Below are positions 8,452 to 54,265 of a stretch of DNA of 64,000 nt, piece after piece. Below the pieces are notes generated by a model. It was not told where the DNA came from. It searched no databases and saw only the letters and a program-made list of their open reading frames with translations. Each line of letters opens with the position of its first letter. The first letter of the stretch is position 1. Source of the stretch: a virus. The stretch is from the IMG/VR virus record IMGVR_UViG_3300045988_168118; one strand, 5' to 3'. Made by a program: the position numbers and the translations under genes.

Positions 8452-9204
8452 TCAAACAAGGCTCCGAAAAGCGTCTAAATTAGATCCATTAGGGATAGCA
8501 AAAATTATTTTTTTAAAAATATAATTATTAGATAATTTCATAAATATCTTTTTAACTTCATTAGGATCTTGACCAAAAGCTCCGCATCCAAAAGCTCCTA
8601 AGATTAGAACATCAATTTTATTTTTCGCCGCAATGTCTAAAATAAAAGAGATTCTTTCTTTTAAAGCCTTAGTATTTTCTTCATCTGTTATCCCATTACG
8701 CTTAGCTTCTTTTTTATTCGGGGCTGCACAAGTAATAATATCACAATTATAAAAATCTTCAAAAAGAATGTTTGGACTATAAATCGCTCTATTCCAATAC
8801 AAACCGCGATTTATTAAGTTTTTATTTTCTCCATAAAAATCTTCTCTTTGCCGCCACAAAATATTATAAAGAATAGACTTATGACATAAGCTTCCTTCTT
8901 GAGTACTACTTCCTTTTAAAAAGCCTCCGCCAGGATATTTAAAAGATGCAAAATTAAGTGCGGCAATCTTACTATCAGGAAATTCAGATACAGCTTTTTT
9001 AATAGCATTAACAGTATCAGTTTCCCATATTTCATAATTAAGATTTTTTTCATTTATTTTCTTCATTTTATTTGCAATAGAACCTGGCACAAAACCACTA
9101 TAATATTTAGTTCTTGCGTTACACCATGCGATTTTATCTGAATATTCTTTTTCCATTTTATAAAAATGATTTATGGCTTGAATAGCTCTTTCTTTTTTAT
9201 TCAT
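8452..9204 (-). CDS. Bacterial-type poly(ADP-ribose) glycohydrolase / macrodomain hydrolase (DUF2263, TIGR02452 family).
   Basis: PARG signature NFASFKYPGGGFLKGSSTQEGSLCHKSILY (GGG-X7-QE) plus the diphosphate loop GAFGCGAFGQDP. It closely mirrors the NFANPxxPGGGFLxGAxAQEExLCRxSxLY and GAWGCGVFGN motifs of bacterial PARGs. The second catalytic Glu is replaced, giving QEG rather than QEE. Confidence 0.65.
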   Translation of the reverse strand: MNKKERAIQAINHFYKMEKEYSDKIAWCNARTKYYSGFVPGSIANKMKKINEKNLNYEIWETDTVNAIKKAVSEFPDSKIAALNFASFKYPGGGFLKGSSTQEGSLCHKSILYNILWRQREDFYGENKNLINRGLYWNRAIYSPNILFEDFYNCDIITCAAPNKKEAKRNGITDEENTKALKERISFILDIAAKNKIDVLILGAFGCGAFGQDPNEVKKIFMKLSNNYIFKKIIFAIPNGSNLDAFRSLV

Positions 9205-9899: not shown

Positions 9900-11063
9900 A
9901 TGACACCAATAACATTAGAAGATAAGGCTTTTGAGGAGAATAATGTTTTAGAAGAAGAAAAAAAAATAACAGAAAAACAAATCGAAGAAGAAAATATGCA
10001 AACTACTATTAAACTAGATTATTCTTTAGAAACTCCTGAAGAGCGGAATGAATTAGTTAAAAAAATTATAGATAAGACTCCTTCTGAGCAATTAACACCT
10101 AAATATTTAGAAATATTATCAGATTACATTATTTTTGCTATGGATAAACAAGAGCGGAAACAGAAGCAAATATTAACTGATAATCATATGGTCACAGTTA
10201 ATAAAAGAGAAACTTCTTTTGAAGGATTAGTTGGTCGCTTAGAGAATGGCGAAGATGGCATTTATAATATGATCGCCAATGATAAGAATATTATTTTTAC
10301 ACCTAAATTTCAAATAACTCAACAGGATATTGCGGAAATCCCTGAGTTAAAGCAACTTGTAGACGCGATTGCGGAAGTCGAAAAAGCTGAGAAAAAAGCA
10401 GTTGGTAAAAAGAAATTTTTATTAAAAAAGCAACTTATTGCTATGAGACAAGATCAATATGTAATTAGAAGTGCATACAAGCCGCCAATTTATTGTATGA
10501 ACGCAATTAAAAGTTTTAGCAAAATTGATTTTGATGAAAATGTTTCTATTAGCGGAAATGATGAAATTGAAGATAATAGCTTAGTTTCTTTTTTTAATCC
10601 TAAGCACATATCTGCATTATTATGTAACTATTCCCGCCTAAAAGAAGATGCATGGGGAAAATTCTACAGTGATTCATATTTTTTAATGGAGGATTTAGAT
10701 ACATTAATAGAGAAGACTCTAAGAGATAGTTATCCAATGTATTATGACCTCTTGATTTATAAAATAGACGGAAAACAAAATCTTGAAATTCAGAGTCTGT
10801 TGAATCAAAAACACAATGTAAAACATTCAGTGGAATATATATCATCTTTATGGCGGAATAAAATACCTAAGCTATTGTCAGAGCAAGCTCAGGAAGACTA
10901 TTTAATTTGGTATTACACAACTCAGAAAAAAGGAAAATGGAAAAAATGTTCCCGTTGTGGGGAAATCAAATTAGCTCATAATAAATTTTTTTCAAAGAAT
11001 AAGACAAGTAAAGATCATTTTTACAGTATATGTAAATGTTGTCGAAATAAGAAAAATAAATAA
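9900..11063 (+). CDS. Hypothetical protein, 387 aa, with C-terminal C4 zinc ribbon (CSRCGEIK...CKCC).
   Basis: ORF with RBS AGGAG. First gene of the late block. No family recognised. Confidence 0.55.
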   Translation: MTPITLEDKAFEENNVLEEEKKITEKQIEEENMQTTIKLDYSLETPEERNELVKKIIDKTPSEQLTPKYLEILSDYIIFAMDKQERKQKQILTDNHMVTVNKRETSFEGLVGRLENGEDGIYNMIANDKNIIFTPKFQITQQDIAEIPELKQLVDAIAEVEKAEKKAVGKKKFLLKKQLIAMRQDQYVIRSAYKPPIYCMNAIKSFSKIDFDENVSISGNDEIEDNSLVSFFNPKHISALLCNYSRLKEDAWGKFYSDSYFLMEDLDTLIEKTLRDSYPMYYDLLIYKIDGKQNLEIQSLLNQKHNVKHSVEYISSLWRNKIPKLLSEQAQEDYLIWYYTTQKKGKWKKCSRCGEIKLAHNKFFSKNKTSKDHFYSICKCCRNKKNK

Positions 11064-25046: not shown

Positions 25047-25078
25047 AGGAGAGTTTAATAACTCTCCTATTTTTTTTT
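25047..25078 (+). terminator. Rho-independent terminator or attenuator after the tail tube gene (aggagagtt-taat-aactctcct followed by a T9 run).
   Basis: 9-bp stem then tatttttttttat. Confidence 0.6.
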
Positions 25079-25098
25079 ATTTATGGAGGAAGTATAAT

Positions 25099-35490: not shown

Positions 35491-35524
35491 AAGAGAGGCT
35501 TTATACCTCTCTTATTTTTTTTTG
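35491..35524 (+). terminator. Rho-independent terminator after the tape-measure gene (agagagg-N-cctctct followed by a T10 run).
   Basis: aagagaggctttatacctctcttatttttttttgg. Confidence 0.6.
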
Positions 35525-35593
35525 GACATTTTTATTTAAAAATCTTTAATAAAAAATTATATTTTATATAAAGAGAGAAAAGGAGTGTATAAG

Positions 35594-40618: not shown

Positions 40619-41002
40619 ATGGTAGATGTATTAATGGTATTTTTAAAATTAGTTATTATGGTTGTTGTTCCAGTAGCAACATCAGTTTTAACATTCTTAT
40701 TAAAAACTTATCTTGAAGAACTGATTAACAAAAATGTTCAAAATGAAACTGCGGATGCTCTAAAGAAAGGACTAAATATTATTTTAGATTCAGTTAATTA
40801 TGTTCAACAGACATACGTAGATAATTTAAAGAAAGAAGATAAGTTTACTGCGGAAGCTCAGTCTAAAGCTCTTCAAAGTGCAAAACAACGTGCTATTGAA
40901 TTAATGAATACTGATGTCCAATCCGCGATTGAAGCTAGTTACGGTAATTTGGATACTTATGTTACTACAGTAATAGAAAGTTTAATAAAGAAAAATAAAT
41001 AA
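40619..41002 (+). CDS. Holin-like small membrane protein, 127 aa, with one N-terminal transmembrane segment (LL-H-family-like).
   Basis: VLMVFLKLVIMVVVPVATSVLTFLL hydrophobic segment, then an amphipathic charged tail. RBS AAAGGAG. Confidence 0.35.
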   Translation: MVDVLMVFLKLVIMVVVPVATSVLTFLLKTYLEELINKNVQNETADALKKGLNIILDSVNYVQQTYVDNLKKEDKFTAEAQSKALQSAKQRAIELMNTDVQSAIEASYGNLDTYVTTVIESLIKKNK

Positions 41003-41013
41003 GAAAGGGGAGA

Positions 41014-41037
41014 GGCGGGTTCATCCCGCCTATTTTT
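41014..41037 (+). terminator. Rho-independent terminator (ggcggg-ttcat-cccgcc followed by tattttt).
   Basis: Seen directly after the holin-like gene. Confidence 0.6.
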
Positions 41038-41040
41038 AGT

Positions 41041-42441
41041 ATGGATAAAATTAAATTAGCAAAAATATCTTTAGATGATGGTGCTAGTTATGGTGAAGAA
41101 ATTCCTATTGGTGTAGAGGCTTCTAATGTAGATTTACCAGATGGAACTAATTTAGGTGATTATTTAGAAGATATGAAGATTGCGAATGAACTTAAAGCAA
41201 GTTTAAAATCTGCCAGATTACGTAATTATCAAGGAGAAGTTCCTGTTGGGGCGAGAAGCTTGACTATTGGATCAAATAATAGAGCAGTTGGAGAAGATTC
41301 TTTTGCAGAAGGAAAAGCAACCTATGCAGTAGGTAATTTTTGCCATGCTGAAGGTAATGGTACTACTGCGGGTTTTAAAGACACATCAACTGGTAAAACA
41401 ACTTATGCAGCACATGCTGAAGGCGGTAATACTCAAGCTTTAGGAATGTATTCTCATGCAGAAGGATATAATACAATAGCTAAAGCAAATATGTCTCATT
41501 GTGAGGGTTTTGGCGGAGAAGCAAGAGGTACTAGTTCTCATGTAGAAGGACTTGGAACTATTTCTCATGCTTCATATCAGCACGTACAAGGAAAATATAA
41601 TGTAGAAGATATTGAAAATAAGTATGCCCATATTGTAGGCGGTGGCACAGGTAGTTCTGAGGATCAAAGAAAAAATATTCACACTCTTGATTGGTATGGT
41701 AATGCTGTATATTCAGGAGATGTTACTATAACTGTTGAAGGAGAGCAAATACCTCTATCTTCTATAGTTGATGTTTTTCGTACTGGAGCTGCAGCTCATA
41801 ATTCAGTATACAGAGGAAAGTTCTTAGGGGATACTATTACTCCAGAACAAGCTTCTGCGATTAATGATGGGACTTTTAAAAATTTATATTTAGGCGATTA
41901 TTGGACTGTTAATGGAGTCAATTATAGGATAGCGGATTTTGATTATTGGATAAATAAAGGCTTTCCAGAGGTTGATAAAACAAAAGTTCATCATCTTGCT
42001 ATTGTTCCAGATAGTTGTTTAGCTACTGGACAAATGAATTCTTCCCTTACTACTAATGGTGGATATATAGGTTCTGGAATGAAAACAAATATATTAAATA
42101 CTGTTACATCAAATTTACCAGATACTTTTAAATCAAGAATACTATCTCGTAGAATTATGGCTGAAGGAACTTGGACTATCACTACATTAGATCTGATGAA
42201 TGAAGTGATGGTATATGGCTGCTATGTTTATACCCATAACAATAATAAACAAACCTCTGACAGTAGACAATTAAATTTATTTCGTTTCAATTCAGGTTTA
42301 CTAAATATCAATAGTGATTATTGGTTGAGAGATGTATCAAGCGAAACTAAGTTTTGCTTAATTTCTCAATATGGAGATGCGAGTAGAGATGATGCCACTA
42401 ACACTTATGGTGTTAGACCTATTTTTGCGATAGGTGGCTAA
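41041..42441 (+). CDS. Tail fibre or receptor-binding protein with YadA-head-like degenerate repeats (AVGxxSFAEG / SHAEG / SHCEG / SHVEG) and a distinct C-terminal domain.
   Basis: Repeats NNRAVGEDSFAEGKATYAVGNFCHAEGNGTTAG...AAHAEGGNTQALGMYSHAEGYNTIAKANMSHCEGFGGEARGTSSHVEGLG. There is no Shine-Dalgarno before the ATG, which lies 3 nt after the terminator. Confidence 0.45.
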   Translation: MDKIKLAKISLDDGASYGEEIPIGVEASNVDLPDGTNLGDYLEDMKIANELKASLKSARLRNYQGEVPVGARSLTIGSNNRAVGEDSFAEGKATYAVGNFCHAEGNGTTAGFKDTSTGKTTYAAHAEGGNTQALGMYSHAEGYNTIAKANMSHCEGFGGEARGTSSHVEGLGTISHASYQHVQGKYNVEDIENKYAHIVGGGTGSSEDQRKNIHTLDWYGNAVYSGDVTITVEGEQIPLSSIVDVFRTGAAAHNSVYRGKFLGDTITPEQASAINDGTFKNLYLGDYWTVNGVNYRIADFDYWINKGFPEVDKTKVHHLAIVPDSCLATGQMNSSLTTNGGYIGSGMKTNILNTVTSNLPDTFKSRILSRRIMAEGTWTITTLDLMNEVMVYGCYVYTHNNNKQTSDSRQLNLFRFNSGLLNINSDYWLRDVSSETKFCLISQYGDASRDDATNTYGVRPIFAIGG

Positions 42442-51045: not shown

Positions 51046-51054
51046 TAAAATGCT

Positions 51055-51097
51055 AGCCAAGAATAATATTTATTGTTATTCTTGGCTATTTTTTTGT
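51055..51097 (+). terminator. Strong rho-independent terminator (agccaagaataa-tatttattg-ttattcttggct followed by a T7 run).
   Basis: 12-bp perfect stem. Confidence 0.65.
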
Positions 51098-51251
51098 TTT
51101 ATACAGAATTTTATACGTGCTTTTTATTTTCTTACTTTAGGAGCCAAATTTACTTTTTAAATAAATTTTAATGAAAATTTCGGGCAAAGTATAAAATTTA
51201 TTACCAGTCATTTTTCATATACCATTGCAAGGGAAAGGAGTGAAAAGTAAA

Positions 51252-51734
51252 ATGTATCAAAATTTACAACAACTGCAAAACAGTCCTTATTACCAATACC
51301 CTTATAATCAACAATATCAACGCCTGGCACAATTAGAGCAACAACAACAGATGAATACTCCGTATAATACTATGGTTTCTCAAAATCAAAGTTTTTTAAA
51401 AGGTAGACCAGTAGTATCCATGGAGGAAGCCCGTGCCGCACAGATTGATTTAGATGGTTCGTTGTTTATTTTTACTGACATAGGAAATAAAAAGATTTAT
51501 ACTAAACAGATAAATCTTGATGGAACTGCTACTTTAAACACTTACTCTCTTGTAGAAAATGTAGCACCAATAGAAAGTTATGTCACTAAAACTGAATTTG
51601 AAAAAGCCATCTCATCAATTAGAGAAGAAATGGTTAAAAAGGAAACATTAGAAAGGAATGTAGATAATGACTCAATTAAACAGCAACAATCTGGAACAAC
51701 TAAAAAAGCAGTTTGCAAATCATCCTCTTTTTAA
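51252..51734 (+). CDS. Gln/Tyr/Asn-rich hypothetical protein, 160 aa (MYQNLQQLQNSPYYQYPYNQQYQ...).
   Basis: Start at ATG 51252, after GGAGTGAAAAG. The track start at 51225 is a TTG. Low-complexity Q/Y-rich N-terminus. Confidence 0.45.
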   Translation: MYQNLQQLQNSPYYQYPYNQQYQRLAQLEQQQQMNTPYNTMVSQNQSFLKGRPVVSMEEARAAQIDLDGSLFIFTDIGNKKIYTKQINLDGTATLNTYSLVENVAPIESYVTKTEFEKAISSIREEMVKKETLERNVDNDSIKQQQSGTTKKAVCKSSSF

Positions 51735-51864
51735 TAGAGCAGAACAAATGGTATCTGGAAAAACACCAGAAGAGATAGAGCAAATTGCAAAAAATTTATG
51801 CCAGCAAAGAGGAATTAATTTTGATGAAGCATGGAAAATGTTTCAGCAACAATTTAGATTTTAG
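51667..51864 (+). CDS. Small helical hypothetical protein, 65 aa, overlapping the previous gene by 68 nt in another frame.
   Basis: ORF whose own RBS-like GAAAGGA lies about 10 nt upstream. Confidence 0.3.
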   Translation: MTQLNSNNLEQLKKQFANHPLFNRAEQMVSGKTPEEIEQIAKNLCQQRGINFDEAWKMFQQQFRF

Positions 51865-51918
51865 CGTACAAGGCTTTTATGGAAAACAAATTATAAATTA
51901 TAAAAAAGGAGATTTATT

Positions 51919-52677
51919 ATGGGAATGATGAATGATGGATTAAGTATCGCTGATGCTATGGCTTTAGCAAAAGATGGAGATTGCACTGGATTCGGCGGAA
52001 ATGGCACTTGGATTTGGGTGTTCTTCTTATTTTTCTTGTTAGCTTGGGGCGGAAATGGCTTCTTTGGTAATAGAAGTGGAGTAGACAGTGCCGCAGTTCA
52101 AGGAGCTTTAACAAGAGCAGATTTATTTGAAGGATTTAACAACAGCGACGTTCAAAGACAATTACAAGGATTATCTAATGGACTTTGTGATGGATTCTAC
52201 GCTCAAAATACAACTATGTTAAATGGTTTTAATACTGTTGGTAGAGAGCTTTGTCAAGGTTTTGGCGGAGTCAATAGTAATATGAGTTTAGGTTTTGCAG
52301 GAATCCAATCTGCAATTAATGATGCAAAATTTGCGGATCAGCAATGCTGCTGTGAAACGAATCGCAACATAGACGCGGTTCGCTATGAAAACTCTCGTAA
52401 TACTTGCGATATTGTAAATGCAATTCGTGAAGATGGAAATACTACAAGAGCGTTAATCAATGCTAATACAATGCAAGATTTAAGAGATAAATTAGCAGAT
52501 AGAGATAGAGATCTTATGACCGCAAATTTTCAATTAAGTCAACAGGCTCAAAGTGCTAATTTGATTGGAACTTTAAGACCTTATCCACAACCAGCTTATA
52601 TTACTTGCTCTCCATATGAAGCTTCCTTATTAGGAAACAGAATTTATAATGGATATAACGGATGCGGCTGTAACTAA
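51919..52677 (+). CDS. Cys-rich membrane protein, 252 aa. It has one transmembrane segment flanked by GGNG motifs, a CCCE motif and a C-terminal NGYNGCGCN.
   Basis: RBS AAAGGAG. Hydrophobic WIWVFFLFFLLAW. Contains 13 Cys residues including QQCCCETNRN. No family recognised. Confidence 0.45.
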   Translation: MGMMNDGLSIADAMALAKDGDCTGFGGNGTWIWVFFLFFLLAWGGNGFFGNRSGVDSAAVQGALTRADLFEGFNNSDVQRQLQGLSNGLCDGFYAQNTTMLNGFNTVGRELCQGFGGVNSNMSLGFAGIQSAINDAKFADQQCCCETNRNIDAVRYENSRNTCDIVNAIREDGNTTRALINANTMQDLRDKLADRDRDLMTANFQLSQQAQSANLIGTLRPYPQPAYITCSPYEASLLGNRIYNGYNGCGCN

Positions 52678-52729
52678 TCTTAATAGAATACGGGCGGAGA
52701 TTCTCCGCCCAAGAAAGGAAATATAAAAT

Positions 52730-53179
52730 ATGGGATATACAATAAACAAAGCATATCAAAAAAGCGTATTAAATGCTGTATCTACTGCAAATGAGACTTT
52801 AACAACAGGACAACTTCTACCATTTACTAATATTAATATTTTAAATGGATGTTCTATCAATTACATTGCTGGTTCTTCTTCAATTCAGTTAAAGAAACCA
52901 GGAGTTTATCTAATCAGTGTAGACGCTATCGCTGCAGAGTCTGGAACTGCGGGAACTGTTACTATGCAATTACAAAAGAACGGAGTTAATGTAGAAGGAG
53001 CAACAAGTAGTTCTAATTCCGCGGCAGTAACAGACTTTAATGGAATGTCTTTTTCAACTGTTATTAAAGTTTTACCTTCTTGTGCTTCTATTGATAATAC
53101 TACTACTCTAACTGTATTAAATACTGGCGTAGGAGCTATTTATTCTAATACTAATATAACTGTAGTTAAATTATGTTAA
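52730..53179 (+). CDS. BclA-C-terminal-domain-like (C1q/TNF-like jelly-roll) protein, 149 aa, with no collagen-like repeats.
   Basis: GVYLISVDAIAAESGTAGTVTMQLQKNGVNVEGATSSSNSAAV...LTVLNTGVGAIYSNTNITVVKL parallels the BclA C-terminal pattern GFYKIEVIAANTATASVLGGLTIQVNGVPVPGTGSS...ASIIIEKVA. Confidence 0.45.
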   Translation: MGYTINKAYQKSVLNAVSTANETLTTGQLLPFTNINILNGCSINYIAGSSSIQLKKPGVYLISVDAIAAESGTAGTVTMQLQKNGVNVEGATSSSNSAAVTDFNGMSFSTVIKVLPSCASIDNTTTLTVLNTGVGAIYSNTNITVVKLC

Positions 53180-53194
53180 TGAGGAGGCTATGTT

Positions 53195-53743
53195 ATGGCA
53201 GAAACAATATCTCCGAAAGCAACAATAGAAGAAAATACAAATGAGGACATGATGGTTAAGATGATGGAGCAGAACTTAGAAGGAGTAATGTTTCATTTAT
53301 TTGAAACAGACTTATATGATTTATTAAAATTACCTGGATTTAAGGCTTTACATTACCACCAATCACAAGAAGAGACTGAAACTCTTGAGCTTTTAAAACA
53401 TAAATATATTGAGAAATATAAAAAATTTCCAATCTTAAAAACAAAAAGTATTGACCGTTGGGAAGAAAACGAGGATTTATATAAAGATTTATCTGAAGAA
53501 AAAATTATTTCTTTAGTGAAAGAATCTATGAAACAATATGCTGATTGGGAAAGCGAAGTTTTAGAACATCTATTACAATGGAAAAGAAATGTAGAAGATA
53601 GAAAGATCGTGCATAAAATGATAGAAGATGTCATGCAAGAGATAAAGCATATAGAAACATTAATGGACATCTTAGAAGAACATGATTATAATTATCAATG
53701 TATCTGTGAAATCTCTGATTACCTTAGTCGTAGATATAAATAA
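53195..53743 (+). CDS. Hypothetical acidic helical protein, 182 aa.
   Basis: RBS GAGGAGG. Last plus-strand gene. Confidence 0.4.
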   Translation: MAETISPKATIEENTNEDMMVKMMEQNLEGVMFHLFETDLYDLLKLPGFKALHYHQSQEETETLELLKHKYIEKYKKFPILKTKSIDRWEENEDLYKDLSEEKIISLVKESMKQYADWESEVLEHLLQWKRNVEDRKIVHKMIEDVMQEIKHIETLMDILEEHDYNYQCICEISDYLSRRYK

Positions 53744-53744
53744 T

Positions 53745-53772
53745 GGGAGCTATTTAGCTCCCATATTTTTTT
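53745..53772. terminator. Bidirectional terminator between the converging late and replication blocks (gggagct-attt-agctccc, then T8 on the plus strand and an A-run on the other side).
   Basis: Seen directly. Confidence 0.6.
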
Positions 53773-54265
53773 ATTCCCAAATAATCTTATTATTTAAAAG
53801 AATATATGCATAACCTATTCCTATAGCATCTGCTTCATCATCATTTACTTTAATATTAAATTTTTCTTCTACAAATCGAATATCTTCAAGCTTTAATTCT
53901 TCTCTTTTGATTCCTTTTCCTGTGCGGATTCCACATGCAGAACGCCATTCACTTGGGTATAAATATTCAATTTTTATTTGTGGAAAATTATCATGTACAG
54001 TAAAAGCTATCGCTGCTTGAAGCCACATCAAAACACGATGAGTTTGAATATTTTGCAATCCATTTTCTGGTCTAACTTCCTCCAAAATAATTTTATCTAT
54101 AGAATATTTCTTTAAAATTTCAATTAGTCCTTCTATCATTTTTTTTATTCTTGCGATAACATCTTTTGAAGAAGCCGTAATACAAGTATGATAAGTTAGT
54201 TTATTATTTTCAAAAATAGCAAATCCGCTACTTTTGGAACTTGCATCTATTGATAATATGTTCAT
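53771..54265 (-). CDS. RuvC-like Holliday junction resolvase.
   Basis: MNILSIDASSKSSGFAIFEN with the first catalytic Asp. Acidic residues in ILEEVRP and VNDDEADAIGIGY are typical of phage RuvC resolvases. RBS AAAGGAG. Own promoter at 54294-54322. Confidence 0.65.
   Translation of the reverse strand: MNILSIDASSKSSGFAIFENNKLTYHTCITASSKDVIARIKKMIEGLIEILKKYSIDKIILEEVRPENGLQNIQTHRVLMWLQAAIAFTVHDNFPQIKIEYLYPSEWRSACGIRTGKGIKREELKLEDIRFVEEKFNIKVNDDEADAIGIGYAYILLNNKIIWE

Follow-up and report, generated by a model that had tools for sequence, protein, structure and literature searches.

A widespread phage gene module built around a cysteine-rich predicted membrane protein and its C1q/TNF-like neighbour

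The subject of this analysis is a cassette of five rightwards transcribed genes, g1 to g5, in a 64,000-nucleotide stretch of viral DNA (IMG/VR record IMGVR_UViG_3300045988_168118; hereafter the window), which covers 64 of the 86 kb of viral contig IMGVR_UViG_3300045988_162193 (locus L011, 100% identical). The cassette is one copy of a widespread mobile phage module with a g1-g2-g3 core, and is not idiosyncratic to the phage represented by the window. All five open reading frames (ORFs) exist as described in a first-pass annotation made from the sequence alone, and each is provided with a Shine-Dalgarno sequence. We fetched 170 loci, comprising phage records, homolog-encoding contigs, 80 viral contigs, and 80 loci chosen at one genome per species, and several patterns are apparent. 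First, the order g1-g2-g3, followed by either g4 or an alternative gene, c38, and then by a variable fifth slot, recurs across these loci far beyond chance. Secondly, in a non-redundant set of 93 loci (85% g3 identity) the core is well maintained, with g1 preceding g3 in 75 loci (81%) and g2, or its variant c15 (homologous by hhalign, 93%), doing so in 67 (72%). Thirdly, the positions downstream of g3 are occupied by alternatives; the fourth slot contains g4 in 53% and c38 in 37% of the 93 loci (either one in 89%), and the fifth is filled in 58%, by DUF7841 (34%), by the g5 family (17 loci, 18%), or by c22 and others.

The g3 protein is predicted to cross the membrane once, with an acidic N-terminal tail of about 30 residues and a transmembrane segment at about residues 30-44, followed by a low-confidence region carrying GLCDGFY and CCCETNRNID, a long helix (residues 155-219), the sequence PxPAYITCSPY, and a tail rich in glycine, tyrosine and cysteine that ends in GCGCN. 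The motifs picked out in the first-pass annotation are all present: GGNG brackets the hydrophobic segment (residues 26 and 44), and CCCE and GCGCN are found at 143 and 248, respectively; the number of cysteines is 10 and not 13 as then stated, a content of 4.0% compared to 1.0% in 32 other proteins of the window. g3 matches phrog_16490 (E 8e-30), a family listed as of 'unknown function'; it matched no Pfam family, and its profile (alignment A2) matched nothing among the PDB sequences. The family is large, numbering over 7,874 clusters at 90% identity and, in an exhaustive profile search, 2,418 clusters at 50% identity. Motifs conserved in alignment A2 are GLCDGFY, QQCCCETNRNID, NTCDI, TRALI, FQLSQQAQ, PxPAYITCSPY and the Gly/Tyr/Cys tail. 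The cysteine clusters are similarly persistent, the CCC being kept in 87 of the 93 loci and two or more cysteines, mostly 2-4, occurring within the last 12 residues in 79 of 88. An AlphaFold2 monomer model built from a 38-sequence alignment is unreliable (mean predicted local distance difference test, pLDDT, 48.7); in it, residues 30-42 form a transmembrane helix and residues 155-219 a helix 65 residues long. A topology with the N-terminus outside and the C-terminus inside, which would make the Cys-rich domain and its partners cytoplasmic, is weakly favoured because the N-terminal tail is short and acidic (3.5 Asp/Glu against 1.3 Lys/Arg in 89 non-redundant members), because the flanks of the membrane segment show a Lys/Arg bias, and because no N-terminal hydrophobic signal sequence was seen on reading the translations of g1, g2, g4 and g5. 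The g3 proteins are 50-60% identical between phages assigned to different phyla, a degree of conservation easier to reconcile with a self-contained assembly than with a protein specific for a receptor.

The g4 product had been proposed to be a TNF/C1q-like protein resembling the C-terminal domain of BclA with no collagen stalk, and both parts of this proposal stand. Its predicted structure is a ten-strand jelly-roll that, among solved structures, comes nearest to the C-terminal domains of F-BclA and BclA, and only 12 residues precede the first strand, with no GXY repeats. Other structural matches are to EDA, the C1q domain of Caprin-2, C1q, ExsFA, many TNF ligands, and phage fibre tips. At the sequence level there is no BclA_C or C1q match in Pfam or NCBIfam even at E<=1, and a phmmer search against PDB was empty at E<=10. 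In g4 the N-terminal peptide is conserved (N6, Y9, K11, S12) and there is a cysteine at the C-terminus; the homologs are all free proteins of 102-162 residues, none of them fused to a fibre shaft. The best matches in BFVD are likewise free proteins, of 130-153 residues, from uncultured gut phages, and two of these are already named 'BclA protein'. Entries of this kind (e.g. A0A8S5S925 of Phage sp. ctGns7) are the same free protein as g4 (TM-score 0.87-0.91, 34% identity), and as some are so named, the fold assignment is not new, the labels on these metagenomic phage proteins being automatic names.

The two genes at the left of the cassette encode proteins of a different character. g1, correctly described in the first-pass annotation as Q/Y-rich, contains 14 glutamines and 7 tyrosines in its first 45 residues. 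Its low-complexity N-terminus, rich in Q, Y, N and P, is followed by a domain in which about 55 residues are conserved (GRPVxSxEEAxAAxIDxDGS...IYTK...G), and a coiled coil lies at the C-terminus (alignment A7). It matches phrog_21718 (E 4e-8), and against PDB sequences its profile found only generic coiled coils. The g2 product is small and helical and carries the motif NNP...GKxPxQxEQ..RN...RG; its gene has a ribosome-binding site of its own. The two genes overlap by 68 nucleotides (51667-51734) in different frames, and in other loci the overlap ranges from 4 to 80 nucleotides (e.g. a 4-nucleotide ATGA in L003, and 8 nucleotides in L001). We considered a programmed frameshift fusing g1 and g2, and rejected it; a conserved event of this type is unlikely because the frame relation is not constant across loci.

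There is substantial diversity in the genes to the right of g3. The c38 proteins (e.g. L001 5715-6092, L003 5813-6196, and L074 1460-1840) are about 125 residues long, beta-rich, and contain about nine cysteines including an N-terminal CxxC/CxCC cluster; they match nothing in Pfam or PADLOC. By hhalign c38 is unrelated to g4 (probability 22%), and g5, DUF7841 and c22 are mutually unrelated, which led us to abandon the notion that each slot holds a single divergent family. An ENA- or F-ENA-like fibre, to which the c38 cysteine cluster and the similarity of g4 to F-BclA might have pointed, was also discarded, there being no DUF3992 or DUF4183 match and the hosts including non-sporulating bacteria. 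g5 has no Pfam match and appears from its profile (A6) to be a remote ferritin-like helical-bundle protein: the top 23 PDB matches are all prokaryotic ferritins (E 8e-4 to 0.12), several of them spanning the whole bundle (positions 16-151). The residues invariant in the g5 family (H34, G48, F49, W89, E119, V146, and E149, with H53, Q56, W118 and others nearly so) do not fit neatly onto the di-iron E/ExxH/E/ExxH pattern, and the window copy lacks an ExxH-like histidine.

Upstream of the module in 25 of the 93 loci (27%) is a gene for an 80-residue regulator of the sigma-region-4/LuxR type, often followed by a terminator. In some loci the regulator slot upstream of g1 instead encodes a four-transmembrane domain fused to a sigma-region-4/LuxR helix-turn-helix (HTH), and these fusions (Table 1) look like membrane-tethered transcription factors. 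A link to AgrB and quorum peptides was considered on account of six AgrB Pfam matches upstream; on reading the sequences, these are most likely the four-transmembrane domains of the HTH regulator fusions, and the idea was not retained.

The module is found in phages of a broad range of hosts. It is complete, including g4, in a prophage of Phascolarctobacterium that lies on a contig of 545 kb and abuts ExbB/ExbD/TonB-like genes (as read from the translations), and in Megasphaera; the g1-g2-g3 core with no g4 is present after the tail fibres of a prophage in the genome of a Dialister isolate. Host labels of metagenome-assembled genomes (MAGs) also include Megasphaera, Treponema, and Gastranaerophilales, together with an E. 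coli-labelled bin that is probably mis-binned, and the module probably occurs in phages of Treponema and Melainabacteria. Cultured carriers are Salmonella phage Segz_1 and the Clostridium perfringens phages XP41-N3, HMD-PC1 and CPD1.

The module is always co-oriented with the late genes, and it lies at the distal end of these or at the prophage end, its position nevertheless varying between phages. In the window and two other loci (L007 and L124) it follows the tail fibres; in many gut prophages, that of Phascolarctobacterium among them, it follows the holin and endolysin genes at the prophage end; and in the C. perfringens phages, which have their own amidase and holin, it lies between the antirepressor and the Gam/Erf genes. 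In Segz_1 (L171 3833-4925, gp24-gp25) it follows the capsid gene, and the g3 homolog, gp24, has a glycine-zipper-like N-terminus and retains CCCETNRNI, along with GCC at the C-terminus; the next gene encodes a His-rich protein of 119 residues with an HHHHHYHH run. In the crAss-like phage cr53_1 (L010) a g3 homolog is the third gene beyond the holin, from which it is separated by a LysB-like protein and a DUF7841 homolog. We note that this g3 homolog (L010 3719-4633), annotated as 'spike protein/glycoprotein', has an in-frame TAG codon, consistent with stop-codon recoding, and that the upstream gene annotated as 'sigma factor/ubiquitin-like protein' is the DUF7841 homolog.

The coordinates of the cassette and its control elements are listed in Table 1. 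The first-pass annotation placed the cassette between two strong terminators, and both hairpins are indeed present; the upstream one, however, is not a unique frontier, because similar strong hairpins followed by T runs occur within the late operon, at about 25050-25085 and 35491-35525. TATAAT-like elements come after both of these, an arrangement suggestive of several transcription units in the late region. Upstream of g1 is an element, AAATTTTAAT(G/A)AAAA.TT.GG.CAA..TATAAA, that is conserved in two divergent relatives, L012 and L007, and to some extent in L170, and the part of it given in Table 1 is a putative promoter. A terminator-like hairpin lies no more than 180 nucleotides upstream of g1 in 24 of 75 loci. 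The GC-rich hairpin between g3 and g4 may act in mRNA stability or processing and so set the g3:g4 ratio. Elsewhere, the window encodes a portal, terminase-like and virion proteins, and a tape measure protein of 2,842 residues, as well as Pol III alpha, NrdD/NrdG, a dUTPase and a RuvC-like resolvase. A sigma factor gene (phrog_5767; 9900-11063) heads the rightwards transcribed block, and just upstream of it, on the opposite strand (8452-9204), is a gene for a microbial-type poly(ADP-ribose) glycohydrolase (PARG_cat_microb).

Table 1. Features of the cassette and of related regulator genes; positions refer to the window except where a locus is named.
Feature	Position	Strand	Description
Intrinsic terminator	51054-51088	+	Ends preceding tail-gene transcript; 15-bp stem, 5-nt loop, T run
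Putative cassette promoter	51167-51195	+	TTTAAT-17 nt-TATAAA; upstream element kept in relatives
g1	51252-51734	+	ORF, 160 aa
g2	51667-51864	+	ORF, 65 aa
g3	51919-52677	+	ORF, 252 aa
GC-rich hairpin between g3 and g4	52691-52711		GGGCGGAG-ATT-CTCCGCCC, 8-9 bp; no T run on + strand
g4	52730-53179	+	ORF, 149 aa
g5	53195-53743	+	ORF, 182 aa
Bidirectional terminator	53743-53764	both	Hairpin with T runs; common to cassette and convergent RuvC-like gene (53771-54265, - strand)
Four-transmembrane-HTH fusion, L113	4491-5168
Four-transmembrane-HTH fusion, L132	3667-4449
Four-transmembrane-HTH fusion, L156	3441-4037
Four-transmembrane-HTH fusion, L159	4345-4962
Four-transmembrane-HTH fusion, L167	3646-4233

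The interpretation that we favour, tentatively and at a little short of an even chance, is that the cassette is an autonomous late or accessory unit that builds a membrane-anchored complex consisting of a stalk and a trimeric head. The upstream terminator, the promoter-like element, g1 to g5 and the downstream terminator would form one autonomous transcription unit, the products of which would assemble at the membrane of the infected or lysogenic cell. g3 would insert by its single N-terminal transmembrane segment, with the acidic tail outside and the Cys-rich domain most likely in the cytoplasm, and would oligomerise through the 65-residue helix into a stalk, with the clustered cysteines (the CCC and the C-terminal CxC) either binding metal or forming cross-links. 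A g4 trimer could be held on this stalk by the conserved N-terminal peptide of g4 or by its C-terminal cysteine, with c38 taking its place as the docked head in other loci; g1 and g2, with their coiled coil and low-complexity segments, would be assembly partners, and the fifth gene a variable addition. Such a complex might have a late accessory role at the cell envelope, for example in the exclusion of superinfecting phages or in the control of egress, and would be involved neither in peptidoglycan hydrolysis nor in spore decoration. Points in its favour are the recurring gene order, the terminators that flank the unit and the conserved element ahead of g1, the regulator found upstream in some loci, the persistent cysteine clusters of g3 and its conservation between phyla, the fold of g4, for which ExsF offers a peptide-binding free trimer as precedent, and the distal position of the module.

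Several observations weigh against this interpretation. The g3 monomer model, with a pLDDT of 49 in round figures, is unreliable. The charge bias on which the g3 topology partly depends is weak, Lys and Arg being more numerous in the C-side flank in 32 loci, fewer in 12, and tied in 45. The fifth slot is heterogeneous and may contain unrelated cargo, and a location after the tail fibres or the capsid gene is also expected of a virion component. PADLOC gave no match for g1-g5, DUF7841, c38 or c22, and the HTH regulator alone matches the HTH part of CARF models. Host labels, moreover, are reliable only for long contigs, isolates and cultured phages, many of the MAG labels being unreliable.

A more ambitious version, which we consider possible but doubtful, is that g1-g2-g3 and a small beta-rich fourth protein constitute an unrecognised cross-phylum phage machine, in which a coiled-coil stalk with clustered cysteines or metal carries interchangeable heads (the C1q-like trimer or c38) and helical-bundle partners (ferritin-like, DUF7841, or His-rich), with a late function lacking a described analogue. 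Were this so, the function might be, for instance, a novel mechanism that times or organises egress, or one that shuts the membrane against the DNA of incoming phages, and it would be common to phages of monoderm and diderm hosts.

Of the competing explanations the best placed, although in our view an unlikely one, is that the module is a virion accessory, in which g4 would serve as a free knob for receptor binding or decoration, g1 as a fibre or a trimeric coiled-coil adaptor, and g2 and g3 as assembly factors. A receptor-binding tip with an assembly factor was among the functions suggested in the first-pass annotation, and the location of the module directly after the tail-fibre genes in the window family and the Dialister prophage, and after the capsid gene in Segz_1, is in keeping with this, as are its invariable co-orientation with the late genes and the common occurrence of C1q knobs as fibre tips. 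The suggestion is weakened by the absence of any shaft fusion among the g4 homologs, and by the shifts in position, the module lying beyond the holin and endolysin genes in many prophages and in the antirepressor-Gam/Erf interval in the C. perfringens phages; in addition, it is often accompanied by a dedicated regulator and a terminator. It would also be unusual for a fibre chaperone to be a conserved single-pass membrane protein, and the fourth slot switches between two unrelated families while g3 is conserved.

Rather less probable is a specific form of the accessory interpretation, in which the module is a moron for superinfection exclusion or anti-phage activity that is expressed either by the prophage or at a late stage of infection. 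Its site, with the lysis genes to one side and the end of the prophage or the integrase to the other, is a classical one for morons, the regulator and the membrane anchor would both be appropriate, and the variable fourth and fifth slots recall polymorphic cargo. There is, however, no PADLOC match and no enzymatic effector domain, g3 is unusually conserved for an arms-race protein, and carriers of the module also include a crAss-like phage and large phages that appear to be virulent.

We regard as improbable that the module is a lysis accessory or substitute, with g3 acting as a holin, antiholin or spanin-like protein and the module making up for an unseen endolysin. It had been suggested that the cassette stands in for missing lysis genes, no endolysin having been recognised in the window; none was found here either, by domain, in the 64 kb. 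A holin is nevertheless present within the tail-fibre block (40619-41002; Phage_holin_6_1, 40.4 bits against a cut-off of 24.9), and as the window covers only part of the contig, the endolysin may lie outside it. The gene that follows the holin (block 40619-42441) encodes 466 residues with YadA-head-like HAEG repeats and a DUF6273 C-terminus, and is thus a fibre rather than an endolysin. In outline the g3 protein does recall the Rz-type i-spanins of two-component spanin systems, with a predicted N-terminal transmembrane segment (30-42), a putative long coiled coil (the 155-219 helix of the low-confidence model), conserved cysteines, a place among the late genes, and, in cr53_1, proximity to the holin; furthermore, about 15 of 148 nearest upstream neighbours of the module are endolysins or holins. 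However, the charge bias, although weak, favours a cytoplasmic C-terminal domain, g3 is much more Cys-rich than a spanin and has the Gly/Tyr/Cys tail, no lipobox partner is seen in the translations of g1, g2, g4 and g5, and in cr53_1 it coexists with a separate LysB-like protein. The module is carried by phages of the monoderm C. perfringens, where spanins have no target, and none of g1-g5 matches a peptidoglycan hydrolase or holin family in Pfam, PHROGs or NCBIfam. Because the module co-occurs with complete lysis pairs, such as amidase and holin in L001 and Phage_holin_4_1 and GH25 in L004 (Amidase_2, M15, GH25 and M23 all occur among its upstream neighbours), as well as with the holin of the window, we do not consider it a lysis substitute.

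The remaining suggestion of the first-pass annotation, a spore-surface moron by which g4, the Cys/Gly/Tyr-rich g3 and the low-complexity g1 and g2 are put on the spores of a sporulating host, is very improbable: the best structural matches of g4 are to the exosporium proteins F-BclA, BclA and ExsFA, the composition of g1-g3 is reminiscent of coat and exosporium proteins, the upstream regulator matches the GerE/LuxR HTH model and many of the carriers are Clostridia, but the GerE Pfam model is a generic HTH, g4 has no collagen stalk, none of the five proteins matched any model in NCBIfam, where the exosporium leader would be represented, and the idea is largely refuted by the carriage of the full module in Phascolarctobacterium and Megasphaera, of the core in Dialister, and of g3 in Segz_1 and a crAss-like phage, the hosts of all of which are non-sporulating.

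The first-pass annotation was thus right about the genes and the fold, and mostly wrong about function, given the hosts and the co-occurring lysis genes; spore decoration and lysis replacement are two tempting readings that the wider comparison corrects. The main value of the comparison is to point out a large, conserved and uncharacterised phage module. We found no functional data in the literature on the g3, g1 or DUF7841 families, the PHROG identifiers, or the C. perfringens phages, and no description of a linked g1-g2-g3 module; the linked module appears to be undescribed, while the C1q/TNF head fold itself is familiar. The g3 family extends over phages of Clostridia, Negativicutes, and Salmonella and a crAss-like phage, with the PHROG families of the module all annotated as 'unknown function', and a conserved multi-gene unit of such breadth probably serves a general, still unnamed step of phage biology. 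The four cultured carriers make the function of the module directly testable, and Segz_1 offers a tractable test system for the g3 family.

The arrangement proposed for g3 and g4 resembles that of a TNF ligand or of the BclA/ExsF nap (PMC12357932), but is split into separate polypeptides. With the C-terminal domains of BclA and F-BclA, found in the Bacillus exosporium and on endospore appendages (Pfam BclA_C, PF18573; TNF/C1q superfamily), g4 has the fold in common, and it differs in having neither a collagen-like stalk nor an exosporium leader, and in being phage-encoded, present in non-sporulating hosts, and always free. A second parallel is ExsFA/BxpB, which occurs in the basal layer of the exosporium as a free TNF-like trimer and docks leader peptides of the BclA type; ExsF binds these leader peptides in the clefts between its subunits (PMC12357932). 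g4 has no sequence relationship to ExsFA, and its proposed partner would be a membrane protein, whereas that of ExsF is a collagen-like fibre. Finally, TNF-family ligands are type II membrane proteins with a stalk and a trimeric TNF-homology head. The g3 domain, by comparison, is likely to be cytoplasmic, and there is no evolutionary link beyond the fold; where a TNF ligand unites its parts in a single chain, the anchor and stalk (g3) and the head (g4) would here be separate polypeptides.

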